The notes beneath the pieces are model-generated. The model searched no databases. It was not told where the DNA came from and saw only the letters and a list, made by a program, of their open reading frames with translations. DNA of 64,000 nucleotides from an uncultured Candidatus Saccharibacteria bacterium (lineage in GTDB: Bacteria > Patescibacteriota > Andersenbacteria > UBA10190), in the NCBI GenBank assembly GCA_964610055.1, contig CAZSUC010000001.1, positions 588,977 to 652,976 on the forward strand. Direction: 5' to 3'. Below are positions 23,504 to 59,522 of the stretch, in pieces. A program made the translations under genes and the position numbers. Positions within the stretch are counted from its first letter, which is position 1. Each line of letters opens with the position of its first letter.

Positions 23504-23568
23504 TATCTCACGTATTTATAGCATACCGCATTGCCAGGCTCCCCCTCCAGCGATTACCCTTATACTTA

Positions 23569-29662: not shown

Positions 29663-29664
29663 AG

Positions 29665-31620
29665 CTAAAGTTGGTATGCAATATCACCTGACTTAGCGAC
29701 CGGCTCTGTCTCTCCTTTGCGTTGCAAAAACATATTACCGGGACGTAGATCTTCATCAATGTACCGGACAGTTACTGCGTTTCCGGCTGTCCCGTCAGGA
29801 CTGGTAATAGCCACGTAAAATTCATGTCCCGCCGCTTCTGTAATCGGATCAAACTCAAAGCGCTTCCATTCGTTGTCTATAATTTCACTGGCATTCACTG
29901 TCACTCGTCGCAACGCGGTTGCCGAATCTGGCCGCTCCTTAATTTCCAACACGACTTCCGCTGTATTATTTCGACTCGAAAAAGTCGCAAACCCAATTTC
30001 GACCGCATTCCAATTATCCTGCTCGGGCTGCACAGTTTGCCCCACTTCCATTCCGCTCGTTAACTCGCCTACATGCTTCGTGAAATATCCAACTGTCATT
30101 GTCTCGTAAATCCAGGCATAAGGCACACCATGTATTGAAACAGTATGTACTGGCGTCTTGTCTTTCACTTCATCTAAAACGTTACTCGCTTGATCATCCA
30201 GAGCTCTTCCCCCCATATTACGATAAGTAATAATGTAACCTACTCGATAATCGTCTCTCGCACTTAAGCTAAATACTTTTCCCTGAAAATACGGCCGCAT
30301 CACGTTCGGATACCAAGAAGCAACTGTTAATTTGTCTCCCAACGGATTTTCATTCAACCAATCAGCCGCTAAATCTAACCCTTCCCCCCACCCCTGCTGA
30401 CTCAAAGAACGCACATTAGGAAATATCGGATTATTATACGCAATCGCATACGGCGCCCACCGCCACCATGTCACTCCCGCTAATATAACTACCAACCCAA
30501 TCAGAATTAATTTATCTCGCTTCTTACTGTGCCACCACGTCATCCCTTGCGCTAACATCCAACCTGATAGAATAGGCCCTATAACCAATGCCGGCATTGC
30601 GTAACGATCCCCTTTCTTAGCCGCCAACGAAATCAATACTAGAAAACCAACAGCATACACAATCATCCAAACCATTGTCTGCGCTCCTTTATCTCGTCGT
30701 TTAACCGCCGCATATAACACATAAACCACAGCCGCTATACTCAAAATTTGTACCCACGGAGTTACTCTCCCTAAAACTGTTCGCACATAAAACGAGGCTG
30801 GCGAAATAGGCTCATCTGATATTTCTAACGCCACATGCTCATCCTCTAAAACCGTCTGCGTATCTTTAGCAATATATCCTAATTGAAAATCCTTCCGAGT
30901 TAACATTGTCGGCCATAAAATTACCAAGACCACCACCGCTATTACGCCCCACATTGCCATTTCACCTAAAACTCGCTTCCAATTCTTCCCTCGCTCCCAA
31001 TACAAATCAATCATCCACATTAAACCAGCAACTGGCCCCAACCAAAATGCTAATACCATTTTTACTCCTAACGCCGCCCCCGCAAAAACTGCGCTAGTAA
31101 TCAAATAACCAGTCTTACGCCGTCGTCGAAACTGAATAAACCACAACAAAGACGTTAACATCAGCATCGCTTGTAACATATCCAAATGCGCCACCATACT
31201 CATCCCTACTACATACGGCTCCAACGCCAACATTATTCCTGCCAACCACGCCATCTCTTTTCCCCAGATCTGACTTAATAGATACGCCACTAATCCAATC
31301 AGACCTGACACAACTATCGCAACTGGCACAGTCGCTGCTTTTCTAAAGCCAATCACATTATTGTCATCTAATTCCACTCCGCTTATTTTTTCTTTTACCA
31401 CAATTCCCGCTCCCATGATCCACATTCCCGTTGCACCCGGATGACTCGTTAAGAATGTCCCGCTAATATCACCAGCGGCTAACTTAGCGTAAAACTCATT
31501 ACTTCGCATCATCCAGTTTTCTTCATCGGCCGTCATAAACGATCCAATCCCAACCAATCGCACACTTATCGCTAGCATCCCGATTACAATCCCAATTATA
31601 ATGTCTTTTACTTTTATCAT
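29665..31620 (-). CDS. GT-C glycosyltransferase (ArnT/PMT-type) with C-terminal soluble module
   Basis: 651 aa. The N-terminal ~500 aa are paralogous to 40168-41676 (FMTADEENWMMRS vs YMTVDEEAWMLRS; ASWYPNVMRPYFQGKVFSL vs ASWYPQVLQTYFRGEVVSL). The C-terminal ~135 aa are homologous to the N-terminal module of 41673-44324. Confidence 0.75.
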   Translation of the reverse strand: MIKVKDIIIGIVIGMLAISVRLVGIGSFMTADEENWMMRSNEFYAKLAAGDISGTFLTSHPGATGMWIMGAGIVVKEKISGVELDDNNVIGFRKAATVPVAIVVSGLIGLVAYLLSQIWGKEMAWLAGIMLALEPYVVGMSMVAHLDMLQAMLMLTSLLWFIQFRRRRKTGYLITSAVFAGAALGVKMVLAFWLGPVAGLMWMIDLYWERGKNWKRVLGEMAMWGVIAVVVLVILWPTMLTRKDFQLGYIAKDTQTVLEDEHVALEISDEPISPASFYVRTVLGRVTPWVQILSIAAVVYVLYAAVKRRDKGAQTMVWMIVYAVGFLVLISLAAKKGDRYAMPALVIGPILSGWMLAQGMTWWHSKKRDKLILIGLVVILAGVTWWRWAPYAIAYNNPIFPNVRSLSQQGWGEGLDLAADWLNENPLGDKLTVASWYPNVMRPYFQGKVFSLSARDDYRVGYIITYRNMGGRALDDQASNVLDEVKDKTPVHTVSIHGVPYAWIYETMTVGYFTKHVGELTSGMEVGQTVQPEQDNWNAVEIGFATFSSRNNTAEVVLEIKERPDSATALRRVTVNASEIIDNEWKRFEFDPITEAAGHEFYVAITSPDGTAGNAVTVRYIDEDLRPGNMFLQRKGETEPVAKSGDIAYQL

Positions 31621-31659
31621 GCATTACTTATAGTACAATAATTCTAATTAATAAACCGA

Positions 31660-33930
31660 ATGTCGCCTTTTTCTCGTCCTTACTTTGCCTTATTAATTGT
31701 TAGCGCTTTAGCGCTCTGGCCGCTTTTTTTCGGCCGTTTTTACGGTATTGGCGATACACGCTCCGTTTATATTCCCATCGAGCATTTTTTTGCTGAGCAA
31801 CAACGGCACTTTAATTTACCGGCCTGGATGCCAGACACTGCTTGGGGTTTTCCGGTAATTGCTTCTGCTCAAATCGGTTTCTTTTATCCGCCTCTTTTAC
31901 TGACACGCTTCTTACCTATCTTTATTTACCTGCCGTTATTACTCTGGCTCCACATCTTTTTTCTCGGTATCGGCGCCTATCGTTTGGCCCGAACCCTAAA
32001 TATTAGTCAAAACGGCGCCCTGATTACCGCCCTATCCATTGCTCTTAACGCCTTTCTTTGGCAGCACTTAACCCACCTAAACATTATTTTTGCTTTGGCT
32101 TGGTTTCCTTGGCAATTACTCGCCGCTCATTACTTAGCCAGATCACATCGACCTAATTTCAAACAATTTGCCGGCTTAGTTTTCACTTTAGGCCTCCCGT
32201 TTTTAGCTGGCCAACTTCAAGTTCCTTTTCTCACCGCTCTTTTCTCTACCATTTATTATTTCGTTTCTTTACCCAAAAAGCCTTTCCCCTCTCGACATCT
32301 CCTCATTTTCCTCGGCGCAACTCTTTTGACTATTACTCTCACCGCCGTCCAAACATTTCCCACCCTAGAGCTCACATTCCTTTCCAGCCGTGGATCAACT
32401 AATGAATTTTCTTTGGAACGAGCTAATCAACATAGTTTTCCTATTTATCATCTACCCACCTTACTTTTTCCACGCTTTTTCGGCTCAGATAATACTTATT
32501 GGGGGAAACGTATTGAAATAGAATACGGCTTTTTCTTCGGCGTCATTCCGCTATGCCTCAGCTTTATTGCTATATTCAACAAATCACGTCGTTACCGTTT
32601 CTGGATTATCAGCGGCTTCATAGCTTTTCTGTTAAGCCTGGGCGAATTTTCTCCTTTTCGCTTAGTTGGCTTAGAGCCATCGCTCTGGTACTTTTCTGCT
32701 CCCGCCCGTTGGCTATTCTTCACCGTTTTTTCTGGATCAATCCTTGCTGGTTTTGGTTATGATCTTTTGCCTAATATCTCACCTCGTTACCTGCGCATCC
32801 TTAAATCAACTATTGTAACCATATTAAGCTGCGTCATTTTATATAATCTCGTCCTTTGGCTCTTGCCGGAAAATTTTGCTTCTTATGTTCTAACCTGGTT
32901 GCAATCACAAAATCTCACCGGCGCTCGCGATTCAGCCTATTATTTAGATAAGATTAATTCCTTACTCTCCTCTGCAAAACACACGGGCTTATCACTTGCT
33001 TCGCCATATACTTACATCACTCTCATTCCTTTGCTCGCCATTCCATGGCTCTTCCAAAAACATCACTCGTGGCTTATTCCTCTCACAGCTATTGAACTCA
33101 TCTTAATTGCCAGTACGGCCAATCCAAGTGTTACTTGGTCCAATATTCTAACTCCTCCTGCCAGCATCTCTGCCCTTCCTCAAAGTGTTACCAGCGATCA
33201 CGCTCGCATCATTTCAATCTCAGCTCCCGGCGATACAGGGCTTTGGCTAACTAACCCTGAAACCCGTGCCGATACCGCTCGTCGCGAACAATATCGTCAA
33301 CAACTCGAACCACTCACTCACTCACTTTTTAATCTTGCCGGTTCTCAATGGCCCGCCTCGCTGGATCTACAATCTCAGGCACATACTTTAGAAAATTTAC
33401 TCGAATCACGCCAAGATCAACTATACATTGATTCTGACAAAGCCGCTGCTCTCAATATCGGTGCTGCCTTAATTGCCAACGAAGCTCCCCACACTGTTTC
33501 AGAAGTACTACCCCAAAATATTGCACCGAATATCTTCTTGTATTCCTTCTCTCCTCAACCTCGCGCTTCTCTTTTAACTGAAGACCAAACCGAATTAGCG
33601 CTTCCATACGACAACACTAATCCTAATCACCAAACTTATACCCTCTCATCATCTACTCCCGCGACCCTTATTATTCGCGACACCTGGTACCCTGGTTGGC
33701 AAGCCACACTTGACGACCAACCCGTTAACATTGATACCTATAACAATATTTTCCGTTCTGTTTCGGTTCCCTCCGGATCACATACCGTTTCTTTCACCTA
33801 TCATCCTACTTGGCTTTATTACGGTCTAGCTATTTCGCTTACCACTCTTGGTTTTCTAATATTTGTGCTGATGTACAATAATCATATCTACACTGTTCCC
33901 TTTATTTTAAGGAGGAAGACCATTGGCTGA
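31660..33930 (+). CDS. YfhO-family polytopic membrane protein
   Basis: 756 aa. Contains NLPAWMPDTAWGFPVIASAQIGFFYP, and the C-terminal RDTWYPGWQATLDDQPVNIDTYNNIFRSVSVPSGSHTVSFTYHP plus a terminal TM. Confidence 0.75.
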   Translation: MSPFSRPYFALLIVSALALWPLFFGRFYGIGDTRSVYIPIEHFFAEQQRHFNLPAWMPDTAWGFPVIASAQIGFFYPPLLLTRFLPIFIYLPLLLWLHIFFLGIGAYRLARTLNISQNGALITALSIALNAFLWQHLTHLNIIFALAWFPWQLLAAHYLARSHRPNFKQFAGLVFTLGLPFLAGQLQVPFLTALFSTIYYFVSLPKKPFPSRHLLIFLGATLLTITLTAVQTFPTLELTFLSSRGSTNEFSLERANQHSFPIYHLPTLLFPRFFGSDNTYWGKRIEIEYGFFFGVIPLCLSFIAIFNKSRRYRFWIISGFIAFLLSLGEFSPFRLVGLEPSLWYFSAPARWLFFTVFSGSILAGFGYDLLPNISPRYLRILKSTIVTILSCVILYNLVLWLLPENFASYVLTWLQSQNLTGARDSAYYLDKINSLLSSAKHTGLSLASPYTYITLIPLLAIPWLFQKHHSWLIPLTAIELILIASTANPSVTWSNILTPPASISALPQSVTSDHARIISISAPGDTGLWLTNPETRADTARREQYRQQLEPLTHSLFNLAGSQWPASLDLQSQAHTLENLLESRQDQLYIDSDKAAALNIGAALIANEAPHTVSEVLPQNIAPNIFLYSFSPQPRASLLTEDQTELALPYDNTNPNHQTYTLSSSTPATLIIRDTWYPGWQATLDDQPVNIDTYNNIFRSVSVPSGSHTVSFTYHPTWLYYGLAISLTTLGFLIFVLMYNNHIYTVPFILRRKTIG

Positions 33931-34126
33931 TGACAAAGACCAAGACGAACGAAACCGACGACTTACAGAAGCCCTTGCGCCGTTAGGGCGAGGCGAGCTT
34001 CCTGACGGTACACCCATTGACCTAGCCGCCATCTCTGAACGTGCAAATCGGAAAGCCTGGATTTTTGCGCGCCGGCTTAGAGATAGCGCAGTACGTGACA
34101 ACCGCCGATACAAGGGTCAACACTAG
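33923..34126 (+). CDS. Small hypothetical protein (67 aa), paralog of 34285-34476
   Basis: TTG start lies 7 nt after GGAGG (33911-33915). It shares ERNRRLTEALAPL...IDLAAISERA with the second copy, and a perfect terminator follows. Confidence 0.5.
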   Translation: MADDKDQDERNRRLTEALAPLGRGELPDGTPIDLAAISERANRKAWIFARRLRDSAVRDNRRYKGQH

Positions 34127-34284: not shown

Positions 34285-34476
34285 TTGGATAATGAAAACG
34301 AACGAAACCGACAACTTACCGTGGCTCTCAATCCATTAAGGACAGGTCTATCATTATCTGACCTCTCCGCAATCGCTGACCATGCCACAGACGACGCCAT
34401 GTCGCATGCCAAAGCAGTTCGTTCAGGAACAGCAAGGACCAGAGCTAAACACAGGTTAGGCCCATACAAAGGCTGA
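34285..34476 (+). CDS. Small hypothetical protein (63 aa), paralog of 33923-34126
   Basis: TTG start lies 8 nt after GGAGG (34272-34276). It carries ERNRQLTVALNPL...LSDLSAIADHA. A 20-nt stretch, gaacgaaaccgacNacttac, is shared between the two copies (33947-33966 and 34300-34319). Confidence 0.5.
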   Translation: MDNENERNRQLTVALNPLRTGLSLSDLSAIADHATDDAMSHAKAVRSGTARTRAKHRLGPYKG

Positions 34477-34788: not shown

Positions 34789-34814
34789 CACACCTCCTCC
34801 TTCATCATCCTACT

Positions 34815-34841
34815 CCACCAAGCCAGTCTTGGTGGATTTTT
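34815..34841 (+). terminator. Rho-independent terminator of the small-gene unit
   Basis: CCACCAAG-ccagt-CTTGGTGG forms a perfect 8-bp stem followed by ATTTTT. The U-tract overlaps the stop codon of the convergent ATPase gene. Confidence 0.65.
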
Positions 34842-36135
34842 ATATCCACATCCTATCAATCAATTCTCGCGGTTGTCCGTACCGTAATCGATTTACCGCC
34901 TGCACCTCTACCTTCCCTATAGCCGTTTCTAAACTTAACGGCGGCAAACTCTGCCCCCGAAATGCTCGGTACGTAATTCCGGCCTGAGTCAGACGGATAA
35001 AAAAGTGATATGGCGGCAAGTCCTGAAAATCCTCCACTTGAATCGCCTGCCCCTTATCCCACGATGTTTGCTGAAAGGCCGGCAGTAACGCTTCCGCATC
35101 ATTTGCCCCTATTTGAAAAGCCACCAACGTTCCTACATTACCCAACACCGCCTCTCGCACCTCGTCAGTTAATTGCGCCACATACTGATTAGTTAAATGC
35201 ACAGCTAATCCGTACTTGCGCGCTTCCGACAACATAGAAATGAATGTTTCCGTCATCACATTCTGAAATTCATCGACGTATAAATAAAAGGGAACCCTGT
35301 CTTCGACCGGCATATCGGCACGACGCATTATCGCCGCCTGTAACTTTGCCATCAAAATCAATCCCAACATATATGAATTTAATTCTCCCAGTCTTCCTTT
35401 AGACAAATTCACAATCAAAATTTTGCCATGATTCACAATCTCATCAAACGCCAAAGCATTGCGCTTCTGACCGATGATATTGCGCATCGTCGTATTTGTC
35501 ATAAAGCGACCAAACTTGGAAGTAAAATAATTCAACATTTCCGAGCGATGAAACTGCGCGGTTTTTGCCATCTGCTCTTCCCAAAATGACAATACGACCC
35601 GATCTCGCACATGGCGACGTTTTTCTTGCTCAAATTTTTCATCCGTAAATAAGCGCGGAATCTCAATCAAAGTTCCGCCCGCCGGATCGGCCATAACTGT
35701 TAAAGCCGCATTTCGCATCCAGTGTTCAAACTGCGGCCCAATAATTCCCTGCTGATCCGGATCAAATAGTTTATAAAATATCTGAATCGCCTCGGCCACC
35801 AAAAAATCTTTCTCACTTTCAGTTTTACCATCCAATAAGTTCAAGCCTAATGGCCATTCCGTATCAGCCGGATCAAACAACACTACATCATCCAACCGCT
35901 CCGCCGGAATATTATTTAACAGCCAATCGCACACTTCTCCATGCGGATCAACAAAACAACACCCCGCCCCAGCCTGAATATCCTGCAAAATCATATTTTG
36001 ATACAAAGTCGATTTACCCGTCCCAGTTTTTCCAATGCAATACATATGTCGCATCCGATCTTGCGGTGCTGTTTGAATACTGCGCATTTGATTGCGAAAT
36101 TCAGCGTGTCCAATTACATTCATTCTTTCTGTCAT
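34840..36135 (-). CDS. Soluble FtsK/HerA-superfamily P-loop ATPase, TraD/VirD4 (type IV coupling protein)-like
   Basis: Walker A CIGKTGTGKST, then FVDPHGE, Walker B FYLYVDEFQ, and the C-terminal LSEARKYGLAVHLTNQYVAQL...LGNVGTLVAFQIGANDAE (TraG/TraD C-terminal-type pattern). No TM segment is visible. Confidence 0.8.
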   Translation of the reverse strand: MTERMNVIGHAEFRNQMRSIQTAPQDRMRHMYCIGKTGTGKSTLYQNMILQDIQAGAGCCFVDPHGEVCDWLLNNIPAERLDDVVLFDPADTEWPLGLNLLDGKTESEKDFLVAEAIQIFYKLFDPDQQGIIGPQFEHWMRNAALTVMADPAGGTLIEIPRLFTDEKFEQEKRRHVRDRVVLSFWEEQMAKTAQFHRSEMLNYFTSKFGRFMTNTTMRNIIGQKRNALAFDEIVNHGKILIVNLSKGRLGELNSYMLGLILMAKLQAAIMRRADMPVEDRVPFYLYVDEFQNVMTETFISMLSEARKYGLAVHLTNQYVAQLTDEVREAVLGNVGTLVAFQIGANDAEALLPAFQQTSWDKGQAIQVEDFQDLPPYHFFIRLTQAGITYRAFRGQSLPPLSLETAIGKVEVQAVNRLRYGQPRELIDRMWI

Positions 36136-36136
36136 T

Positions 36137-36361
36137 TCAGCTCCTTTCTACCATTGTAAAATAATTAGCCGGAATAGGACGTGGCGGCAATCCCGGTCGC
36201 ATCACCATAACTACTTTTGTTTCCACCTTAGCTTCAGACGTAATCTTCACTGTCCGCCGCCATGCTTCCAAACGGTTTTTAATTACTCTCTGCGTTTCTA
36301 TTGGCAGCCAATGCTTAATTCGCTCATACTCCTCTTCTACTTTGTGTAATTTTGCTATCAT
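36137..36361 (-). CDS. Small hypothetical protein (74 aa)
   Basis: ATG 36361 overlaps the upstream TGA (ATGA), and its own stop lies 1 nt before the next ATG. This translationally coupled position is the main evidence. Confidence 0.55.
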   Translation of the reverse strand: MIAKLHKVEEEYERIKHWLPIETQRVIKNRLEAWRRTVKITSEAKVETKVVMVMRPGLPPRPIPANYFTMVERS

Positions 36362-38043
36362 ATTGTTTCTTTCATCATCCATTGCCCGATCGCTGATTCC
36401 GCCGTTTGTTCTAGCCATCTTTTCAACGGCCTAACCCCGAACCGCGGATCATATTTCTGCTCAATGTGTTGTCTAATCATATTATCCGACATCGACAAAT
36501 TAACTCCCAAATGACTGAATCGTCTTTCAATCTTCTGTAGTTCCAACCGTCCGATCATCACTAAAGTTTCCGGCGCAAACGGAGCAAAAACAGCAATTCC
36601 CTCAAACCGATTCAAAAACTCCCACCGAAAATATTTAGTCAGCAATGGCAACATCCGCCGACTTAACCATTCCGCACTTGTTACATCCTCTCCTGCCTGC
36701 CAATCAGTCACAATTTCACTTATCCCTATATTCGAAGTCGCCACAATCACGGTTTTCCGGAAATCGATTGTTCGTCCTTGCCCATCAGTTAAACGCCCAT
36801 CTTCTAACACTTGTAAAAAAATATCAAACACCGCTTTATCGGCTTTTTCAATTTCATCCAATAAAACTAACGAATATGGCCTTTGTTGTACTGGATTAGT
36901 TAATTGACCACCACTCTCATACCCAACATAACCAGGTGGCGCACCAATTAAACGCTGTACATTATGTGCTTCCTGGTATTCCGACATATCAACCCTTACC
37001 ATCGCCTTATCTCCGCCGTACAATTCTCGCGCCAACACACGCGCCACCTCTGTTTTACCGACTCCGGATGGACCTAAAAACAAAAATGAACCCAATGGTC
37101 GATCCGGATTCTTCAATCCTAACCATGACCTTTCGATTACTTTTGTTACCATATTTACTGCTTGATCCTGACCAATGACCTGCGCTGCTAATCTACCCCC
37201 CAACCCAGCAATGGCCTTCCTATCTCGCGTTTGAACTTTTATTGTCGACATCCCCAACTTATCACTCAAAACCCGCTGCGCATCTTCATATGCCACAATC
37301 CTCCGCCCCTGCACCACCGCCTCCGCTCCAATGTCATCTAAAAACCTAATTGCCCGTTCGGGCATCGCTAAGCTCGCTGGTAACTGACTCGCTAAATCAT
37401 AGATTGCTTCCGGCATATTAGCAGCCATCTTAATATTATGTTTGAATCCAAAATAAGCGGCGCGATCTCTTAAAATTTCCACCACATCTGCTTTTCCTAA
37501 TTCATCTAATCGAATCCATTCGAACTCACGTACATACTTCGGATAATTTTCCTTAAATTTTATTTCTCCTTCTAACGACAACGCTAACACTAATCTATGC
37601 CTCTGTTTCTGCCAAAACTTACTCCACACATCCGCCATCTGCGCTGTATTCATCACATACTCCAACAGCACCTCTGCCTTATCAATCACCAAAATACAGG
37701 CTGGTAGCGCTCCTAGTGCTTCTCCGTAAAGCCGTAATTTCGCGGCCGGATCATGCGCTCGATTCATTTTTTCCTGCCACCATTTCAAATCTAACTCCAG
37801 AATTGGTGTTTGAATTATCCCCTGCAAACTGCCTTTGACCGCCGCCTGCGCCAACCCTCTCAACAACGCTGTTTTGCCTACTCCTTCTCCTCCTGTCACC
37901 ACCACGTTATTCATTTGATCACGCTCAAATACTCGCGCCATCAAACTCAACTCTCGCTCCCGACCTCTCACTGGCCACTGACGAACTTGAGTAGCCTCTC
38001 GCACTAAATCAATTATATGTATTGTTTCTAATCGCTCAGGCAT
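36358..38043 (-). CDS. Clp/Hsp100-family double-AAA+ ATPase, short form (no N-domain, no M-domain, degenerate NBD1)
   Basis: NBD2 is intact: GPSGVGKT, LLDEIEKA, GAPPGYVGYESGGQLT, VIVATSN, FLNRFEGIAVFAPF and GVRPLKRWL. NBD1 keeps Walker A GGEGVGKT, but Walker B reads ILVIDKAE (E replaced by K) and the KYRGEFE-type pore loop is absent. 561 aa. Confidence 0.85.
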   Translation of the reverse strand: MPERLETIHIIDLVREATQVRQWPVRGRERELSLMARVFERDQMNNVVVTGGEGVGKTALLRGLAQAAVKGSLQGIIQTPILELDLKWWQEKMNRAHDPAAKLRLYGEALGALPACILVIDKAEVLLEYVMNTAQMADVWSKFWQKQRHRLVLALSLEGEIKFKENYPKYVREFEWIRLDELGKADVVEILRDRAAYFGFKHNIKMAANMPEAIYDLASQLPASLAMPERAIRFLDDIGAEAVVQGRRIVAYEDAQRVLSDKLGMSTIKVQTRDRKAIAGLGGRLAAQVIGQDQAVNMVTKVIERSWLGLKNPDRPLGSFLFLGPSGVGKTEVARVLARELYGGDKAMVRVDMSEYQEAHNVQRLIGAPPGYVGYESGGQLTNPVQQRPYSLVLLDEIEKADKAVFDIFLQVLEDGRLTDGQGRTIDFRKTVIVATSNIGISEIVTDWQAGEDVTSAEWLSRRMLPLLTKYFRWEFLNRFEGIAVFAPFAPETLVMIGRLELQKIERRFSHLGVNLSMSDNMIRQHIEQKYDPRFGVRPLKRWLEQTAESAIGQWMMKETI

Positions 38044-38044
38044 A

Positions 38045-39895
38045 TTAGACCATCATTGTCCGATTAACAGTTGTGCCACCCGTAATCTGACTGGATCTTA
38101 TCGTTCCTTCCTCTTCATCTTCTGTTCCTATAATTATCCCGCCACGATGACGCGCTTCTGCCGCTAACTCAATCTCTGTCCCTCTTTGCTTAATCTGACC
38201 AACATAATTATCTAAATCTACTCGCCAACCCGGCTTCTCTCTTTCATTTCTCCAATTTTCTCTTTCCGCCTCTGCTCTCCATTCATATCCAACCGGACCA
38301 TCTGTCACTTGCTCTAAACTATCCGGCTTCGTTTTCGCCTCATAAAAACGATACCTAACTGCATCCCCATCTCGCTCCACTACCGTTACATCCAACACTT
38401 CGCCTTTTACCGTACGCTCTCCCGAAAAATACTGCTGTTCTCTGTTTACTGCGCCTCTAATCACTTTTTCTAGCTCTCCTCGCTCTTCCACCGGCCACAA
38501 ATCCATCACACTCTTTTCTATTTGCTCCGGCATCAACGTTAAAGCGACTTTCTCTTCCATATCTAACTCAACATCAATACCCTGAATTTCCTCTCTTCTT
38601 ACCTCCGCCTTATAAACCGTTTCTACCTTCGGGTACTCTTTCTTTTCCCCAACCTTCACATCTACATTCACATCTACATCTATATTCTCTACATTATTTT
38701 CTCTTCCCTTTTCTAAAATCACTGGTCTTTCAGCTATTTTTTTCTCCTCCGTAATCGCAACTTCAACTCTTTCCTTAACTCTCGTAACGCTTTGCTCCGA
38801 TAAAACCTGGTCGGCTTTCACATCCACCGCTTTCGGCACTAGTCCCGGAAACATCTCCTGTAAACTCACTTCTACTTTCCTAGATTCATTTTTCTGTCCT
38901 AAATCAGTTTGCACTACTTCTGGCATTGAAGCAGCTTCTCTTTCCCCCGCATTTACATACTTTATCTCTATGGCTTCACTCGGCGTATTTTCTATCACCC
39001 GTACCTCTCCTGTCTTCGTCTCACCAGGTTCCTCTTGCTTTAACAACTCCTTACGCAACTCCTCATGATTCCAAACTTCTTCTAGCTGCGGCTCTTCAAC
39101 CTGCCTCTGCTCCACAAACACATCAGAATTAATCGTATTTTCAGATGCTTGTTCTTCTAGTTCTTCTCTTTGATCATCTACTTCCACTCTTTCACCAACC
39201 ATATCCATCGCATTTATATAATTTATCTCAATGCCTTCACTCGACGTATTTTCTATCACTTGCACCTCTTCTTCTCTCACCTCATTGCTTTGCTGTTCTT
39301 GTACCACTACCACTTCTTCTCTAACAAGCTCTTCACTTATCTCATCAACCATACTTTCTGCTTGCGCTTCAATCTCTACTTGTTCTACTTGCGCTTCATC
39401 TTCACTGCCTATCCACTCGTCGCTTTCTTCATTCAAATTAACCGGTACTTCACGAAATTGCACTAACATATATTCTGTTTCTCGTTCTCCCCACTCATTC
39501 ACTTCGTCTTTGACCACCACTGCACAACTTTTAAACTCATGATAAGCCACATATCCACTTTTCGCGCCACATAATGTTTCAAATTGCCCTTCTTCATCCA
39601 TTCCTTCACTACTAATCTCCTGATCATTCCAAAATACCCGTCTCTTACCAGTCGCGTCTTCCCTCACCACGCATTTATATGTCTGCGCCATTTCTAGTCT
39701 TTGCCCTGTCCCTTGCTCTAAATCAACTCGAGCTGATTCTAATCTCATTGTCATTCGCTCATGTTCTTCTGTCTGGCGTTCCTTTTCCGATGCTAATTCT
39801 TCTGCTTGAACCTGTACCTCAGATTCAATCTCTTCAACATCCAACATTTCCTCTAGGCTTTCTTCGGTTTCCGCTATGTTTATACTTTCAGGCAT
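38045..39895 (-). CDS. Hyper-acidic repeat-containing protein (616 aa), function unknown
   Basis: ATG 39895 lies 8 nt after AGGAG. The long central region is Glu/Val/Gln-rich with an internal duplication (EVQVIENTSSEGIEINYINA and EVRVIENTPSEAIEIKYVNA). There is no signal peptide or TM segment. Its stop lies 1 nt before the Clp-like gene's start. Confidence 0.75.
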   Translation of the reverse strand: MPESINIAETEESLEEMLDVEEIESEVQVQAEELASEKERQTEEHERMTMRLESARVDLEQGTGQRLEMAQTYKCVVREDATGKRRVFWNDQEISSEGMDEEGQFETLCGAKSGYVAYHEFKSCAVVVKDEVNEWGERETEYMLVQFREVPVNLNEESDEWIGSEDEAQVEQVEIEAQAESMVDEISEELVREEVVVVQEQQSNEVREEEVQVIENTSSEGIEINYINAMDMVGERVEVDDQREELEEQASENTINSDVFVEQRQVEEPQLEEVWNHEELRKELLKQEEPGETKTGEVRVIENTPSEAIEIKYVNAGEREAASMPEVVQTDLGQKNESRKVEVSLQEMFPGLVPKAVDVKADQVLSEQSVTRVKERVEVAITEEKKIAERPVILEKGRENNVENIDVDVNVDVKVGEKKEYPKVETVYKAEVRREEIQGIDVELDMEEKVALTLMPEQIEKSVMDLWPVEERGELEKVIRGAVNREQQYFSGERTVKGEVLDVTVVERDGDAVRYRFYEAKTKPDSLEQVTDGPVGYEWRAEAERENWRNEREKPGWRVDLDNYVGQIKQRGTEIELAAEARHRGGIIIGTEDEEEGTIRSSQITGGTTVNRTMMV

Positions 39896-40097
39896 ACAAA
39901 AAACTCCTACATGCACAACACGCATGAGGAGAAATCACTAAAAATCCTTATGCGCGTAGGCTCAACAAAGGATTCAGGCACTCTGACTTATGGCTTTTAG
40001 CCCATCACAGTTGCGGCATACCAGCGCCGGATTCTCACCGGCTTTCCCTGATCACACTTTTCAGTGCGCGTGGTGCGAACCACGCCAATCCTCTTTA
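39896..40097 (-). promoter_or_regulatory. Cobalamin riboswitch-like 5' leader (aptamer ~39966-40096, expression platform 39896-39965)
   Basis: The minus-strand RNA reads AUCAGGGAAAGCCGGUGAGAAUCCGGCGCUGGUAUGCCGCAACUGUGA (40005-40050) plus the B12-box-like GCCAUAAGUCAGAGUGCCUG (39975-39994). These are closed by P1 AAGAGGAUU/AAUCCUUU. Downstream, hairpin 39904-39931 (CUCCUCAUGC-guguugu-GCAUGUAGGAG) sequesters the SD and is followed by U6 and then the ATG. Confidence 0.8.
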
Positions 40098-40167
40098 AAA
40101 ATTAATGTGCACTCTTAGCTTACCGCCGTTCCCTTGGCCCCACAATCAGTTTTTTGCACAGGCTCGT

Positions 40168-41676
40168 TTATTTAGCGTATATCCAAACATAAGGCACGTC
40201 GTGCACCTTTATAACCTCCACCGGCACGACATCTTTCATTGCCGCTAACGCCTGACTCGCCAAAGTGTCTTCTCCGCGACCACCCATGTTTCTATAGGTC
40301 ACAATATAATCAACATGTTCATTCTCCCGAGCCGCTAAACTAACTACCTCGCCCCTAAAATATGTTTGCAACACTTGCGGATACCAAGATGCAACCGTTA
40401 ATTGTTCCGCCTCTGTCTGCGCGTTTAACCAAGCTGCCGCCGCTTCTAACCCCTCACCCCATCCTTGCTGACTTAGTGGCCGTATCTCCGGTAATAAAGA
40501 ATTATTATACGCAATCAAATAACTATCTCGCCAATTAGCCCATGTCCAAACGGATAGAAATACCACCACGCCTATCGCAAACCCTTGCCATGTTTTTTTT
40601 CGTCTCGCCAAAGTTATCTTTGCCGTTACCCATCCCGTCAACACCGGCCCCACAACCAACGCTGGCAATGCATACCGATCCGCTTTTTTCGCCGCCCAAG
40701 TCATAATAACCAAAAAGCCAATCGCATAAACATACATCCAAACCATTTCTTGGCTGTGCTTTTGTTTCCGCACTATTACTATTAATGCTGCTACCCAGCC
40801 AAATAACACCAGCGGCGTACTCCGACCCAATGCGGTTCGCATATAAAAAGTCGCGGGCTGAATCGCATCCGTCCCAGCATCTAACTCAACATGCTCCCAA
40901 GTAACTGCTGTCCCAATATCACGCGTAAATGAACGACTCATATCTGCTTTCACCCACGCCGCTGGCCATGCCACCCAAAACACCAGTCCTGCTACTCCAA
41001 TCACCGTGCCCAAAGTTCGCAACATTATATTTATTTTTCCTGACTTGCCCCATAACTTCCACACCACCCACCCCATCATCATTGGCACTAGCCATAACGC
41101 TAAAATTAATTTCGTTGCCGCTGCTAGCCCAAACCAAATACCTGCTCCAACTAGCCAACGCCATTTTTGCTTTTGCCACCAGACCATCCACGCCAACCAA
41201 CTATTCAACATGAACAATGCCAATAATCCATCCAAATGCACAATCTGCGTCGCTCCTGCTAAATACGGATCTAACGCCAAAAATATTCCAGCTAACCAAC
41301 CGACTGGCGCCCCTCCTAAGATCGTCAACATAAATGCCGCTATCCCAATCATCCCAGCCGCCGCTAAACTCACGGGCAGAACAGCTGCCTTACGAAAATG
41401 TTGTAAATTACCTGGCTGAACTGTTACTCCTAAACGTGTTTCTTGCACCACTTCCCCTGCCCCTGCTAGCCACATTAAAGGCGCCCCCGGATGAGTTGTC
41501 ACAAATGTCGACGCTGGATCCATGGCTCGAATTGCCTGCCAATATTGAGCGCTGCGTAACATCCACGCCTCTTCATCCACTGTCATATATTGCCCTAACC
41601 CCGGCCACCGCGCCAATAACGCTAAAACTCCGATACTAACTGGTATTATTCCTGCTTTCGCTTTAATCCAATTCAC
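40168..41676 (-). CDS. GT-C glycosyltransferase (ArnT/PMT-type), paralog of 29665-31620
   Basis: 502 aa and polytopic, with extended similarity to the first ~500 aa of the 651-aa protein. Confidence 0.75.
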   Translation of the reverse strand: MNWIKAKAGIIPVSIGVLALLARWPGLGQYMTVDEEAWMLRSAQYWQAIRAMDPASTFVTTHPGAPLMWLAGAGEVVQETRLGVTVQPGNLQHFRKAAVLPVSLAAAGMIGIAAFMLTILGGAPVGWLAGIFLALDPYLAGATQIVHLDGLLALFMLNSWLAWMVWWQKQKWRWLVGAGIWFGLAAATKLILALWLVPMMMGWVVWKLWGKSGKINIMLRTLGTVIGVAGLVFWVAWPAAWVKADMSRSFTRDIGTAVTWEHVELDAGTDAIQPATFYMRTALGRSTPLVLFGWVAALIVIVRKQKHSQEMVWMYVYAIGFLVIMTWAAKKADRYALPALVVGPVLTGWVTAKITLARRKKTWQGFAIGVVVFLSVWTWANWRDSYLIAYNNSLLPEIRPLSQQGWGEGLEAAAAWLNAQTEAEQLTVASWYPQVLQTYFRGEVVSLAARENEHVDYIVTYRNMGGRGEDTLASQALAAMKDVVPVEVIKVHDVPYVWIYAK

Positions 41677-44324
41677 ACTGCACTCGCTTTAATTCGATGC
41701 ATGAACACCAGCGTGTTTGATCCATTCTCTACTTCATGAACTGTTTCAAAATCAGTTTCCATCCCTGCCTCAATCTCGGAATACTCCATCAAAAATGAAA
41801 ACCCAGTTTGTTTTTCTAGTAACACCCATTCCGCCTCACGCCAAGCCTGAACCATCTCTTCGGCGGAAGGCAAAAACACATTCAGTCTTTCTGGGTTCTT
41901 TCGTGTAAATTCATAGGCATACCAACGCGGATGAGCAATATCTAACGACACATGATGACCAGATAAATATGGTACTGCCGCTGCTCCCGTAAAAATCGGT
42001 TTATCTGATGGAATATTTTCCTGCGCCCATTCTGCCGCCTCACGCAAAGAATCTTGCTGAAAAGTTCCAGTGTGCTCAAACGTTGCCGTAATATAATTTG
42101 ATAAATAAACTGCCCACATAATCACTAGTATACTTATCACCGCCAATGGGCGGCGTACCATTTCTCCTTTACCTACCACAAACAAACGTCTCCACAACCA
42201 ATAAGCTCCTACCGCCGCCAATATCGTCAGAGGTGGCAAAAATTCAATAATGTAATTCGCATGAAACTTAATCCAATTCCAGTAAAAGAAGGCTAAGCCT
42301 AAAAACCACGCCAACAAGACCAATGCACTCGCTAGCATCTGTCCCGCCGATTGTTCTCCCGGTGCCACTTTAATTGACTGTTTAATTTCAAATTGAGCTT
42401 GTGCTCCTGAAACTACATTCATCGGTATATTCACCCCTGCATCCGGCTGCGTACTAGCTTTAACTTGAGATGACGCCACCCATCCTTCTTCATTACTACG
42501 CGGCCATACAGTTGCAATCAGTAAAACACTCATCATACCCCACCATAACCCTCGCATTCCACCCATTGATAAAAACGGTTCTCCTTCATATTCAAAGAAA
42601 AATCCATGCGCCCACCACCACCCTAACCATGCCAATAACCAGCCTATTTTTGGCAGCACATGATCGACAATTACAATAGTGATCTTGTCCGACTTATCAC
42701 TGACCCACTTTCGCGCTATCACCCGTAACCATCTTTCCCACATCATTCCAACTCCCACCAGCGCCAAAATTATTAGCGGCAATGATTCTCGGAAAAACGG
42801 CGTCATGCCTCGAATTGAATATTCGCGCACTTGTTCCGCCTCTGCCGGATCAATTGCGGTTTGCCCATCTTCCGCTGAATTAAAACCACTCACTTCCCAC
42901 AAGCCTTGTGTACCATACTGACCATATGCCCACCCTAACAACGCCGAAATTACTAACAAAAATCCCGCCCCAATCAAAACTAAACGCTGGAATTTATTGC
43001 GCCATCCTCGCGACTCAATCCAGACTAATAATAACGGCACAATCCCTAACGCTAGAATACTCTTACGCGAAGCAACACCTAACCCCAATAAAAGACCACC
43101 TATTAACAAGCGATATCCTAATTTCCGGCCTCCCAGATGACCCCGCAACGCCGTCCATATCACCGCGATTCCACTAATCCCAAATAACATCGCCACTGGC
43201 TGAGTGTGCACATACACTGTACTCACTGCTGCCGATCCCAACATCCCCCACATTACCGCTGCCAATAATCCTGTTCGTTTGTTATGTGCTTCTCGTCCAA
43301 TAAAATACATCGGAATGATTGTCAGCACTCCAGCCATAATTGATCCCATGCGTCCCGCTAAAATTGTCGGTCCCATTATTAACTGCCATAATGCCACCCA
43401 TAACAACATAATCGGCGCCTTCACATAACCATCCCCTCCGGCTAAGTGTCCGCGCAATAATGTTTGCGCATCATACAAATAATTACCCTCATCATTAGTC
43501 ACCGGCATTTCTACGGCATATCTGATACGCCATAAAGTCGCCAATATCATGACTAAAGCAATAATCGTTCCCACTACTACTCGATTTAATTCTTTTTCCT
43601 GAGCTTGCCCGCTCAAAACTACTATTGCTCCTACAACCACCGCAGCCGCCAACGCTAAAATCATCCAGTTATAATACGTTCCTTCCCGTGTATCCCAAGT
43701 TCCCACTACCCACCGCGCCTGATTCCCAACAGTGGTAATAATAGCTTCTCGCAACGTCACATCATGATGAGCTATAAACGCCACATCCACCGTTGGCTTT
43801 CCTGACCGCGCAATTACCTCCGCCCCTATCTGCCCTTCGCTGTTCCGCACTAAAAATGCTGACCCTAAGTGATAAGGATCTTGCGTGTTCAAATCAACAG
43901 TCACTGCATTTCCCACCACTGACGCCGGCGAAGTAATCGCGAAGAAATAAGTTTTTCCTTTGCTATTCGCAATCGGATCAAACTCAAACCGATAAAATTG
44001 ATTATCTCCTAGCTCCTGCGGCTCAGCTATGACAGTCCGCAAATTTTCATCACTTGTATAGGACTCTCGTAAATAGAAATAAACCGGCGCCGTGTTGTCC
44101 CTCCCCGAATACGTTGCAAACATTACGCTTACTGCCGACAAGTCATCTGCATCCGCCACAAAAGTCTGTCCTACTAACGCATCGCCCGTTAATTCACCTG
44201 CGTTAGTTGTATATTCCTTAATTTCCGTGTCATTTTGCTTAACCTTAATAAAATTCGCTGACACTGCTGCAGCCGCTAAAACAACTACCACAATTAAAAA
44301 CCAAATTTTTGTTGATGATCGCAT
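41673..44324 (-). CDS. Large GT-C glycosyltransferase with N-terminal anchored soluble module
   Basis: 883 aa. A signal-anchor is followed by a module (GELTGDALVGQTF...YRFEFDPI...FFAITSP...GNAVTV), then many TM helices with an ArnT/PMT-like pattern (NDEGNYLYDAQ). Confidence 0.75.
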   Translation of the reverse strand: MRSSTKIWFLIVVVVLAAAAVSANFIKVKQNDTEIKEYTTNAGELTGDALVGQTFVADADDLSAVSVMFATYSGRDNTAPVYFYLRESYTSDENLRTVIAEPQELGDNQFYRFEFDPIANSKGKTYFFAITSPASVVGNAVTVDLNTQDPYHLGSAFLVRNSEGQIGAEVIARSGKPTVDVAFIAHHDVTLREAIITTVGNQARWVVGTWDTREGTYYNWMILALAAAVVVGAIVVLSGQAQEKELNRVVVGTIIALVMILATLWRIRYAVEMPVTNDEGNYLYDAQTLLRGHLAGGDGYVKAPIMLLWVALWQLIMGPTILAGRMGSIMAGVLTIIPMYFIGREAHNKRTGLLAAVMWGMLGSAAVSTVYVHTQPVAMLFGISGIAVIWTALRGHLGGRKLGYRLLIGGLLLGLGVASRKSILALGIVPLLLVWIESRGWRNKFQRLVLIGAGFLLVISALLGWAYGQYGTQGLWEVSGFNSAEDGQTAIDPAEAEQVREYSIRGMTPFFRESLPLIILALVGVGMMWERWLRVIARKWVSDKSDKITIVIVDHVLPKIGWLLAWLGWWWAHGFFFEYEGEPFLSMGGMRGLWWGMMSVLLIATVWPRSNEEGWVASSQVKASTQPDAGVNIPMNVVSGAQAQFEIKQSIKVAPGEQSAGQMLASALVLLAWFLGLAFFYWNWIKFHANYIIEFLPPLTILAAVGAYWLWRRLFVVGKGEMVRRPLAVISILVIMWAVYLSNYITATFEHTGTFQQDSLREAAEWAQENIPSDKPIFTGAAAVPYLSGHHVSLDIAHPRWYAYEFTRKNPERLNVFLPSAEEMVQAWREAEWVLLEKQTGFSFLMEYSEIEAGMETDFETVHEVENGSNTLVFMHRIKASAV

Positions 44325-44333
44325 TAACGCCTC

Positions 44334-45353
44334 TTACCAATAATACTCTTTATTCTTGCGATAAAACTCGACCATTTCACGAATACCGTCCTTAAAATCT
44401 ATCTGTGGTTTCCAGGCACATGCCATTTCCAATTTATGCGTATCAGCAATATAATCCCCTGTCTCATTTTTTTCATAATCTTCCGGCCAGGGTACGTATT
44501 TCTTCGTCCCCGCCCCCGCCGCTGCGATAATCATATCTACCATCTCTCCAAATTTAATCCGCTCATGACTCCCCACATTATACGCTTCTCCCGCCTGTCC
44601 TTTGACGATTAAGCGCATCATCCCATTTACAATATCATCAATATAAATATAATCTCGCTCCTGTTCTCCATCTCCAAAAATCTGAATTTCTTGCCCCTCT
44701 AAAGCCTGCCTCACAAACCAACCAACTATTGAATACTTACCATGTTTCATCTGCTGTCGTGGACCATATGGATTTGGGATCCGCATAGACACGCCTTGCA
44801 CTCCAAAAGTATGCGCATAATATCGATAATACTTTTCTCCTAATAGCTTATGAATTCCATACAAAGACAAAGGATCAGTCGGATGCGTCTCTTTAACCGG
44901 TAATTCTAAAATTTTTCCATACACTAATCGAGATGACGAAAAAAGAATCCGCGCTTCTGGTGCAAAATTTTTGACTGCTTCCAAAATCACTAAATTGCCT
45001 CGGCCGTTAAAATCCAAATCCATAAACGGCTTATCCTTTGATTCCAAATAACTCACTTGTCCCGCTAAATGAAACACAAACTGTTTGCCTTGCACTAATT
45101 TATTCATTAGTTCCTCATCCCGAATATCACCATCTACCAGCTCTAACTTCTCTTCTATATCCGCTACGTTAAACCGATTACCTCCATACGGCGGCAATAA
45201 CGCATCCAAAATTGTTACTTTTGCTCCAGCTGCTGTTAGCGCTCTTGCCAAATTACTGCCAATAAATCCTAGGCCACCAGTAATCAACACCTGTGCTCCA
45301 GTTAGGGCTGTTTTTATATCTTCCGGCAAATCGCTTGTTAATTGCTTATCCAT
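44334..45353 (-). CDS. NAD-dependent sugar-nucleotide epimerase/dehydratase (extended SDR)
   Basis: Carries VLITGGLGFIGSNLARAL and the YGIHK (YxxxK) motif. 339 aa. Confidence 0.85.
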   Translation of the reverse strand: MDKQLTSDLPEDIKTALTGAQVLITGGLGFIGSNLARALTAAGAKVTILDALLPPYGGNRFNVADIEEKLELVDGDIRDEELMNKLVQGKQFVFHLAGQVSYLESKDKPFMDLDFNGRGNLVILEAVKNFAPEARILFSSSRLVYGKILELPVKETHPTDPLSLYGIHKLLGEKYYRYYAHTFGVQGVSMRIPNPYGPRQQMKHGKYSIVGWFVRQALEGQEIQIFGDGEQERDYIYIDDIVNGMMRLIVKGQAGEAYNVGSHERIKFGEMVDMIIAAAGAGTKKYVPWPEDYEKNETGDYIADTHKLEMACAWKPQIDFKDGIREMVEFYRKNKEYYW

Positions 45354-45402
45354 TGCCTATCACGGTAGCAGAAAAATTCTGTGTCTGCATCTCTAATTCT
45401 TT

Positions 45403-45441
45403 AACAAAACCCCTTAAAGAAAGACGCATTTCCTTAAGGGG
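45403..45441 (-). terminator. Rho-independent terminator
   Basis: The minus strand forms CCCCUUAA(g)GAAA-ugcguc-UUUC(u)UUAAGGGG followed by UUUUGUU. It lies 12 nt after the stop of the 149-aa ORF. Confidence 0.6.
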
Positions 45442-45452
45442 CGAATAAACAC

Positions 45453-45902
45453 TCAGGATTGCAAGCGAATCAAGAGAGCGTAAGATTCCCTCAGCCGCGG
45501 AACACAGTGATTCATTGCCAAACCACGTGTCGTGCAAGACTTATACAGCCACGATCCGCGGGTAAGACCAAACTTATCGCGAGTATCCAGTTGCACAATC
45601 TTGGCATATGGCAACAACAAACCACGCAGAAAAAAATGAGCGCCCACAGCCAAAAGATCGCACTGATCCGCTAACCAAACACGCTTCTTCTCAACCCAAT
45701 CCATCGCTTGCATATCAGTCGTTTCAACTCCAAAGCAAACGAGTTCCAAAGGCGCTAAACCAGCCGCATGGGGCGCACACCAATCTTGAGGTATAGTCAC
45801 CCCGGTCACCATGTCATACTTAGCACTATCAACGCGTTCCTGTAAAGATACACTCCGGGGCGGCAACCAGACATCACGCAGTTTCGTTATAACCACTGTC
45901 AT
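45453..45902 (-). CDS. Orphan hypothetical protein (149 aa)
   Basis: ATG 45902 is preceded by CAGGAGAA. No recognisable motif. It sits in a patch where the window-wide C>G bias is lost. Confidence 0.5.
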   Translation of the reverse strand: MTVVITKLRDVWLPPRSVSLQERVDSAKYDMVTGVTIPQDWCAPHAAGLAPLELVCFGVETTDMQAMDWVEKKRVWLADQCDLLAVGAHFFLRGLLLPYAKIVQLDTRDKFGLTRGSWLYKSCTTRGLAMNHCVPRLRESYALLIRLQS

Positions 45903-45969
45903 CTCTCTTCTCCTGTATGAGTGAAACTTTGTCTCAGTGAAAGGTACGATCAATTACACTCTCACGATT

Positions 45970-59519: not shown

Positions 59520-59522
59520 ACC

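Follow-up and report, generated by a model that had tools for sequence, protein, structure and literature searches.

What can an Hsp100 protein do once the first of its two ATPase rings appears to have lost the means to hydrolyse ATP? This question is raised by a gene within a 64,000-nucleotide stretch of contig CAZSUC010000001.1, from an uncultured Candidatus Saccharibacteria bacterium of the Patescibacteriota; the whole of this stretch is called the window in what follows. The gene encodes a short Clp protein with two AAA+ modules, or nucleotide-binding domains (NBD1 and NBD2), and a first-pass annotation of the window had proposed that it is a "single-engine unfoldase with a structural pseudo-ring". 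That annotation did not take into account the operon in which the gene lies, a context which tells more about function than the motifs of the Clp protein do. The account favoured here, with a probability of about 0.6, is that of a two-ring class I Hsp100 specific to Patescibacteria, driven by NBD2 and encoded in a vitamin B12-controlled operon together with its putative client and with an ATPase resembling the type IV coupling proteins (T4CPs).

The Clp protein was said to lack an N-domain, an M-domain and a ClpP-docking loop, and on all three points the annotation is borne out. Pfam recognizes AAA_2 at residues 315-481 (E = 7e-58) followed by ClpB_D2-small at 492-557, whereas NBD1 gives generic P-loop matches alone and no Clp_N domain is found. 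The preceding gene ends with a stop codon 1 nt ahead of the ATG of the Clp gene; since this stop stands immediately upstream, the missing N-domain is neither a wrong start call nor an annotation artefact. In MAFFT alignments the M-domain is represented by 5 residues, against about 127 in Escherichia coli ClpB, and the IGL tripeptide by which E. coli ClpA docks onto ClpP corresponds to WQA, in a shorter loop. The AlphaFold2 model (predicted local distance difference test score, pLDDT, 93.7; predicted TM-score, pTM, 0.84) has, in NBD1, a lid and an AAA+ core with all of its five strands, and superimposes over its full length on the ClpC, ClpB and ClpA protomers of hexamer structures with TM-scores of 0.8-0.85. 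A pair of tandem AAA+ modules, of which the second is of the AAA_2 type and is followed by D2-small, is the hallmark of class I Hsp100 proteins and is present in both the Pfam matches and the model.

Within that class the protein falls into none of the named families. The scores against the NCBIfam equivalog models remain far below their cut-offs for ClpB (TIGR03346, 391 against 1232), for ClpA (TIGR02639, 352 against 993, in one collinear stretch) and for ClpV/TssH (TIGR03345, 336 bits against 885). Besides the insufficient scores, the M-domain coiled coil and N-domain of ClpB are missing, as are the N-domain and IGL loop of ClpA and the N-domain, short M-domain and (V/I)GF loop of ClpC; the canonical ClpC loci used as controls carry IGF or VGF loops and M-domains of 61-70 residues, and the window's protein has neither. 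No type VI secretion genes, which would be expected beside a ClpV, occur among the neighbours examined. The claim that this Clp is unlike canonical ClpA, ClpB, ClpC and ClpV and clusters with no characterized subfamily therefore holds, the literature searched offering no counterpart either. The label given in source annotations is "ATP-dependent Clp protease ATP-binding subunit ClpA/ClpC". A second Clp gene is not found within the 64 kb.

The two rings differ sharply in their motifs, the registers of which were taken from HMMER alignments to solved ClpB and ClpC chains and from MAFFT alignments with ClpA and ClpB of E. coli MG1655. In NBD1 the Walker A motif is kept, and Walker B reads ILVIDKAE where ILFIDE(I/L)H is expected, so that D121 is retained and the catalytic glutamate is K122. 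The annotation had itself named a mis-registered Walker B glutamate as the possible error, and on alignment every one of its motif calls was found to be correctly registered. Pore loop 1, KYRG(E/D)FE in canonical proteins, aligns to NRAHDPAA and has no aromatic residue, again as had been noted; in addition, the sensor-1 threonine position is occupied by Leu/Ser and the arginine-finger pair RR has become RE. NBD2, for which a complete set of hallmarks had been claimed, indeed contains GPSGVGKT, LLDEIEKA, GYVG, TSN, NRF and GVRPLKR. Judged by Walker B glutamate, arginine fingers, sensor-1 and KYR loop, NBD1 falls short of catalytic competence both in this protein and across its family.

That family is large. 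Among 5.8 billion proteins searched there were over 100 relatives of 535-577 residues at 35-47% identity, the named ones belonging to Patescibacteria (Portnoy-, Doudna-, Wolfe- and Dojkabacteria, Parcubacteria), as well as further relatives of 709-743 residues that bear Clp_N. In 120/120 aligned matches the NBD2 catalytic residues are invariant and NBD1 is degenerate. Among 96 short members, NBD1 retains the Walker A lysine in 94, the following Thr/Ser in 96 and the Mg-binding aspartate in 96, whereas the arginine-finger and sensor-1 positions are unconserved and an aromatic pore loop 1 is present in none. The catalytic position of NBD1 is occupied by Asp in 68, Asn in 12, Glu in 6, Ser in 5, Gly in 2 and Lys, Gln and His in one each, the lysine being that of the window's protein; about half of the relatives have an acidic residue three positions on, at position 124 (E124 in the window). 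Mean pairwise identity in this set is 28.6% for NBD1 and 57.2% for NBD2, and by this measure NBD1 appears to evolve twice as fast as NBD2. An independent sample of 45 distinct Clps, picked through the neighbouring T4CP-like gene described below and not through the Clp sequence, gave the same picture: Asn in 20, Asp in 19, Gly in 3 and Gln, Glu and Ser in one each at the NBD1 catalytic position, the Walker A lysine in 43/45, the Mg-binding aspartate in 45/45 and all NBD2 residues in 45/45. The ClpP tripeptide [LIVM]G[FL] occurs in the docking loop of 0/45 of these cassette Clps, and in none of the short family generally.

A degenerate NBD1 is thus, as far as the alignments reach, not peculiar to the window's Clp but a feature that defines a large clade of Patescibacteria. 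Since the residues that hold nucleotide and Mg are under purifying selection and those required for hydrolysis and substrate grip have been lost, ring 1 is best read as an ATP-binding, non-hydrolysing ring. The single engine of the first-pass annotation is therefore supported by the pattern of selection, and its pseudo-ring needs amending, as a ring that goes on binding ATP fits better than a merely structural one. That the protein is a motor with a dead NBD1, powered by NBD2 only and independent of ClpP, is very probable on these sequence grounds.

A rough neighbour-joining tree, in which canonical ClpA, ClpB and ClpC served as outgroups, united all Clps of the type found in the candidate phyla radiation (CPR) with a support of 25/25 bootstraps; that for the core short family was 28/30. 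Monophyly of all short Clps was also considered and found to be weak (9/30), leaving the core clade alone supported. The long CPR forms are already without M-domain and ClpP loop and mostly without the KYR loop, Walker B of NBD1 was lost independently in several CPR lineages (IKNF, FNEV, FDNF), and the short family has lost the N-domain in addition, in a graded series. Other Patescibacteria relatives are longer: three of 906-921 residues (L010, L048, L079) have long CxxC-rich, zinc-ribbon-like N-terminal extensions, and two of 831-837 residues (L073, L083) have an N-terminal extension with a hydrophobic, possibly membrane-spanning segment. Walker B of NBD1 is degenerate in all five (FDNF, VQDI, IDNI, IENV). 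At L083 a more distant T4CP-like gene, at 34% identity, lies downstream; the same locus contains a 16S rRNA match at 816-2482, whose 1667 nt against a model of 1533 positions suggest an insertion, and after it, at 2734-2816, a sub-threshold match to a group II intron domain (31 bits against 35).

The Clp gene is the second of a four-gene cassette (Table 1), in which a cobalamin riboswitch is followed by genes for an acidic protein, the Clp, a small helical protein and a TrwB/VirD4-type ATPase that has no membrane anchor. The genes of the window's cassette are predicted, from their spacing, to be translationally coupled. The same cassette was recovered at all short-family loci that could be read (the window, also numbered L001, the P0002 and P0167 contigs, L002, L003, L004, L091 and L092), with acidic proteins of 237-736 residues that have no Pfam match, small open reading frames (ORFs) of 68-106 residues and T4CP-like proteins of 425-437 residues matching TrwB_AAD_bind, TraG-D_C and DUF87. 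The linkage was then approached from the partner side, in 80 metagenomic loci with a T4CP-like gene, those that extend 2.1 kb or more upstream being counted as informative. A Clp homologue lies directly upstream and on the same strand in 57/57 informative loci, at a distance of 238-794 nt, and the small ORF fills the gap in all cassettes; in the two match lists, 33 Clp and T4CP-like pairs fell on equally sized contigs. By contrast, a T4CP-like neighbour was present in 0 of about 75 canonical Clp loci of other phyla, which served as a control (they were obtained by scanning a genome collection for the Clp with patterns that hit universal NBD2 motifs and hence mostly canonical ClpB and ClpC), and at neither of two Clp_N-bearing CPR relatives. 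The genes that flank the cassette are ordinary chromosomal ones and differ between loci. It is highly probable that the Clp and its three operon partners, under the cobalamin riboswitch, form one functional unit.

Table 1. Features of the cassette and its borders (positions are those of the window)
Feature	Position	Strand	Basis
Cobalamin-type riboswitch aptamer in the operon leader	39957..40105	-	Rfam RF00174, full model length, 27.4 bits
Expression-platform hairpin (TCTCCTCATGC / GCATGTAGGAG) that includes the Shine-Dalgarno sequence, with a U-run after it; the ATG at 39895 follows immediately	39898..39932	-	Reading of the leader; minimum free energy and centroid folds
First gene: acidic protein of 616 aa (pI 4.4, 25% D+E), largely low-complexity, no known domain	38045..39895	-	ORF list, Pfam, composition
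Clp/Hsp100 of 561 aa without N- and M-domain; degenerate NBD1 (~9-245), complete NBD2 (~282-557)	36358..38043	-	ORF list, Pfam, NCBIfam, alignments, AlphaFold2
Small helical protein, probably 74 aa from Met20 of the 93-aa ORF 36137..36418; C-terminal RPGLPPRPIPANYF motif	36137..36361	-	Reading of the sequence
Soluble TrwB/VirD4-type (T4CP-like) hexameric-ATPase motor domain, 431 aa, no transmembrane anchor	34840..36135	-	Pfam, NCBIfam, AlphaFold2
GC-rich hairpin just past the stop codon of the final cassette gene; terminator-like for a convergent + strand ORF, possible bidirectional operon end	34814..34836		Reading of the sequence

The riboswitch was found by reading the 240-nt leader, in which a core resembling the B12 box was seen, and then by an Rfam search at permissive thresholds; a scan of the whole window at gathering thresholds reports no riboswitch. 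The window's leader scores 27.4 bits against RF00174, whose gathering score is 31.5, with E = 3e-5 in the stretch searched and 0.0027 in a search of 36 kb. Related leaders score higher: 67 bits for AdoCbl (threshold 50) at L092, 48.9 for AdoCbl-II (36.5) at L004, 46.5 at L091 and 34.4 at L002. The aptamer core, with 25 invariant columns, is common to 6/6 leaders, including that of L003, which cmscan missed; all six finish with a hairpin and a T-run just ahead of the start codon, the terminal hairpin of the window covering 39904-39932. Compensatory changes occur in 9/17 predicted pairs. A covariance model built from these six and run on the 80 partner-selected loci gave 44 matches, all on the coding strand, and of the 39 loci that reach far enough upstream 38 have the element, at 1.56-3.0 kb from the start of the Clp gene and separated from it by one acidic gene. 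Rfam's own curated thresholds call a cobalamin-clan riboswitch at the same place in 9/12 further loci. Across 39 distinct sequences, in an alignment that was fitted to the model and therefore somewhat favours the structure, 89.8% of cells are paired against 70.8% in shuffles, and cells with double changes number 118 against 32.7; 0/500 shuffles reached either value, and slid controls were far lower.

As cobalamin riboswitches are nearly always OFF switches, the operon would, by that precedent, be expressed when B12 is scarce. Like the members of Rfam clan CL00101 (Cobalamin, AdoCbl, AdoCbl-II), the leaders combine a core and B12 box, covarying helices and, after these, a terminator/Shine-Dalgarno hairpin. 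They differ from them in their targets, the genes of the cassette not being the usual ones for transport, biosynthesis or B12-independent isozymes, and the window copy differs in its sub-threshold score. A B12-binding DxHxxG motif is absent from all cassette proteins. One informative cassette locus, L146, with 3.5 kb upstream of the Clp, gave no match to the riboswitch model. A PaaX_M-domain gene lies directly upstream of the riboswitch at L004 (4588-5067) and L092 (70-591), which may reflect synteny within a lineage or a regulator.

The first gene is invariably situated between riboswitch and Clp. For the window the ORF list gives a protein of 626 residues starting at 39925; this ATG, however, falls within the leader hairpin, and the database call (P0242) is 616 residues. 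The median length of its counterparts is 653 residues and their median pI 4.54, with a pI below 5.5 in 40/41. A word-indexed search for relatives of the window's protein returned the protein itself alone and an exhaustive phmmer search one weak N-terminal relative; by these comparisons the gene appears to evolve very fast. What is shared is the end of the protein. In 29 of 35 distinct proteins the last residue is alanine (-A) and in 24 the last two are (-AA), NG(I/V)(T/S)(L/M)(K/R)xAA being a frequent form; among other ORFs of these loci the -AA ending occurs in 10/327 (Fisher p = 2e-21). Over the final 25 residues the net charge is positive in 27/35 (median +3), compared with -2.7 per 25 residues elsewhere in these acidic proteins. 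Tails of the ssrA type are engaged by Clp unfoldases, and basic C-terminal signals are read by coupling proteins. Most relatives resemble both kinds of signal in that they end in ...(K/R/I/L)AA and are basic over the last ~25 residues; unlike an ssrA degron, the tail is genetically encoded and not added by tmRNA, and it is missing from the window copy.

The third gene is best taken to encode 74 residues, like its homologues, because the corresponding ATG overlaps the Clp stop (ATATGA). A [YF]F motif lies within the last 25 residues of 55/57 copies of this small protein. A proline-rich motif, RPGLPPRP, had been considered as a general feature and was set aside, being confined to close relatives.

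The last gene begins 1 nt past the stop of the small ORF, with a Shine-Dalgarno sequence (AAAGGAG) 7 nt before its ATG. Its product exceeds the Pfam cut-offs for TrwB_AAD_bind and TraG-D_C, also matches DUF87 and, in NCBIfam, TraD/VirD4-like families. The family is 57-70% identical across Patescibacteria and better conserved than the Clp. TrwB is the nearest solved relative by sequence; Foldseek places TrwB-deltaN70 and Helicobacter pylori Cag-beta at the top for the AlphaFold2 model (pLDDT 93.4, pTM 0.92), with TM-scores of 0.60-0.65, ahead of HerA. The nucleotide-binding domain with its all-alpha domain that typifies coupling proteins is thus present in both the Pfam and the Foldseek results, whereas the N-terminal membrane anchor is not, the maximum 19-residue hydropathy being 1.35 and no transmembrane segment being found; nor are there type IV secretion system or relaxase genes among the window ORFs scanned. 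From the absence of a hydrophobic segment and the match to TrwB and Cag-beta, the partner is taken to be a cytoplasmic T4CP motor without membrane anchor. It shares with TrwB, VirD4 and Cag-beta a RecA-like core into which an all-alpha domain is inserted, and has its best structural matches among them, but it is anchorless, lies beside no virB4, relaxase or secretion channel gene, is only about 14% identical and is always paired with an Hsp100. The hairpin that follows this gene has no U-run on the minus strand, and its role for the cassette is therefore uncertain.

From these observations the following mechanism can be proposed. NBD1 would bind ATP without hydrolysing it and thereby provide nucleotide-dependent assembly and an entry collar; NBD2, which holds all catalytic and substrate-gripping elements, would be the sole motor and would pull the polypeptide through the pore. 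As no ClpP-docking tripeptide is present, the Clp would be an unfoldase or remodeller rather than the subunit of a protease, and since N- and M-domains are lacking, neither ClpS/MecA-type adaptors nor Hsp70 would act on it, so that specificity would have to be supplied in trans. The acidic, disordered product of the first gene would be the dedicated client, presenting in most relatives a basic -AA tail similar to an ssrA tag or to a type IV secretion signal. The Clp would engage and unfold this client through NBD2, either jointly with the coupling-protein-like hexamer or for hand-over to it, and the small protein may serve as adaptor or regulator. The motifs and the fold are observed, as are the conservation pattern across the family, the order of the genes, the tail motif and the riboswitch. 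We infer ATP binding without hydrolysis, the unfolding activity, the identity of the client, the cooperation with the T4CP-like ring and the OFF direction of the switch. The designation of the acidic protein as client, with hand-over to the T4CP-like ring, is tentative, and the odds are somewhat against it.

Known Hsp100 proteins provide partial models for such a division of labour. In ClpA, the chief role of D1 is in hexamer assembly, and D2 acts as the principal motor; the two AAA+ rings of the E. coli protein are collinear with those of the window's Clp over 527 residues, without M-domain insertion in either, but the latter is devoid of the N-domain (and hence of ClpS docking), the IGL loop, the NBD1 glutamate, the arginine fingers, sensor-1 and the KYR loop. 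For NBD2 as for the whole protomer, the best matches in sequence and structure are ClpB/Hsp104 and ClpC, and ClpB likewise has no ClpP loop; they differ in having an M-domain of 61-130 residues where the window's Clp has an insert of 5, an N-domain and a live NBD1. Activation that depends on Hsp70 or MecA is not possible for a Clp without M-domain and N-domain and with a dead NBD1. In NSF, by its D2, and in PEX1/PEX6, by their D1, one ring binds nucleotide in support of assembly, and the work is done by the other. The likeness is one of logic, by analogy, in having one non-hydrolysing ring, as these proteins belong to other AAA+ clades. Human CLPB/Skd3, a single-ring protein, has the same type of NBD2 (PDB matches 7ttr and 8zr0) and is likewise of another AAA+ clade.

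Several alternatives deserve to be weighed against the favoured account. The Clp might be a general stress chaperone or disaggregase, a minimal housekeeping enzyme of the ClpB/ClpG kind with unrelated neighbours, as is suggested by an NBD2 that is 55-60% identical to those of ClpB and ClpC, by a missing ClpP loop as in ClpB, by the frequent trimming of domains in reduced genomes and by the lack of any other Clp gene in the window. This is unlikely, given that the M-domain needed for Hsp70 coupling and the N-terminal aggregate-binding domains of ClpG/ClpK are both absent, that the four-gene order is conserved with overlapping stop and start codons (57/57), that control is by a metabolite riboswitch and not by heat shock (38/39), and that the longer, Clp_N-bearing paralogues of Patescibacteria, in unrelated contexts, are better housekeeping candidates. 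A normal two-engine Hsp100, in which substitute residues (the aspartate of the relatives, or E124 here) allow NBD1 to work as an ATPase, would account for Asp in 68/96 and Glu in 6/96 at the catalytic position, for the acidic position 124 of about half of the family and for the strong purifying selection on Walker A and the Mg-binding aspartate. Yet the lysine of the window cannot be a general base, Asn is commonest (20/45) in the independent sample, the arginine fingers, sensor-1 and pore loop 1 are gone too and the ring evolves at twice the rate of NBD2, which makes such activity quite improbable.

The reading implied by the database annotation, that of a ClpA/ClpC-like ATP-binding subunit feeding ClpP, would agree with the collinearity with ClpA and with the resemblance of the neighbour's -AA tail to the ssrA degron of ClpXP and ClpAP; with IGL replaced by WQA in a shorter loop, the docking tripeptide absent throughout the cassette Clps and the short family, and a score far under the ClpA equivalog cut-off, it must be considered very improbable. 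Least probable is a mobile-element or anti-phage defence module. In PADLOC, NBD2 has matches to the PDC-M37B and DolB candidate systems, and those of the T4CP-like protein are to mad8 (4e-16) and HerA; the first gene evolves very fast and coupling proteins are typical of conjugative elements. These PADLOC matches are at the level of domains only, for which reason the defence reading was rejected; furthermore, the T4CP-like protein is conserved at 57-70% identity across distant Patescibacteria classes in the manner of a housekeeping protein, the flanks are ordinary chromosomal sequence varying by locus with no relaxase, integrase or VirB4 gene nearby, and control by a vitamin riboswitch is no feature of defence islands.

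The NBD2-driven, B12-controlled unfoldase has itself to face a number of contrary observations. The window's own leader is below the Rfam gathering threshold, and its acidic protein ends in NRTMMV, with an acidic tail and no -AA. Most relatives have Asp and not Lys at the NBD1 catalytic position and a small subclade keeps the glutamate (IDEA), so that residual hydrolysis by NBD1 is possible in these relatives. Basal short Clps, such as P0120, have the upstream gene without a T4CP-like gene or riboswitch. No membrane segment is found in any of the four cassette proteins, and neither a type IV secretion channel gene nor a B12-related gene in the window; on this account a link to secretion is not established, nor is a direct one to B12 metabolism. 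Finally, gene neighbourhood shows functional coupling, not mechanism.

Should the account be correct, it would concern AAA+ enzymology in the first place, as a natural and widespread Hsp100 whose entry ring lacks hydrolysis and pore loop but keeps nucleotide binding amounts to an experiment on the purpose of ring 1. In the literature searched there is no description of a bacterial Clp with a dead substrate-entry ring, of a Clp with a dead NBD1 in the CPR, of a link between a Clp and a T4CP, or of CPR cobalamin riboswitches or a regulon joining such a riboswitch to a coupling protein; taken together, the genes of the cassette may constitute a new system, and a cobalamin riboswitch regulon is unexpected in Patescibacteria, which to our knowledge cannot make B12 and depend on hosts. 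One may conjecture, with considerable doubt, that the cassette is a Patescibacteria-wide, B12-responsive machine in which, under cobalamin starvation, the unfoldase and the T4CP-like hexamer process a dedicated, fast-evolving client. The purpose could then be the export of effectors towards the host cell or the scavenging of cofactors or nucleotides, and vitamin status would be tied to host interaction in these episymbiotic bacteria. Such a machine would also explain thousands of "orphan" VirD4-like genes in Patescibacteria. A survey of 2,918 Patescibacteria genomes counted 5,713 VirD4-like T4CP homologues, of which 148 lie near virB4 (PMC12102498). Its authors did not rule out exaptation of Patescibacteria T4CPs for other functions, and the survey makes no mention of Clp or AAA proteins (PMC12102498). 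The cassette gives a context to such orphan coupling-protein homologues, most of them distant from virB4 and recorded without a role assigned to them (PMC12102498).

The surroundings of the cassette show some further features. It lies inside a large region for envelope glycosylation (22103-33930 and 40168-47109), with at least five paralogous membrane glycosyltransferases of the PMT/PMT_2/YfhO/ALG3 type, GT4 enzymes and sugar epimerases, and with MurJ and DUF4012 genes further along (57897-61466); as the flanks differ in other genomes, this region is probably unrelated to the cassette. Over the entire window (1-64000) the GC skew of the + strand is about -0.3 and never changes sign, an extreme asymmetry that is independent of the direction of transcription: at third codon positions + strand genes have a skew of -0.52 and - strand genes one of -0.61, and the proteins of the two strands differ visibly in amino-acid make-up. 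In the interval from a YfhO-like gene to the cassette end, two adjacent + strand ORFs of 67 residues (33923-34126) and 63 residues (34285-34476) have the appearance of tandem paralogues, both starting M(A)D(D/N)...ERNR(R/Q)LT(E/V)AL(A/N)PL.

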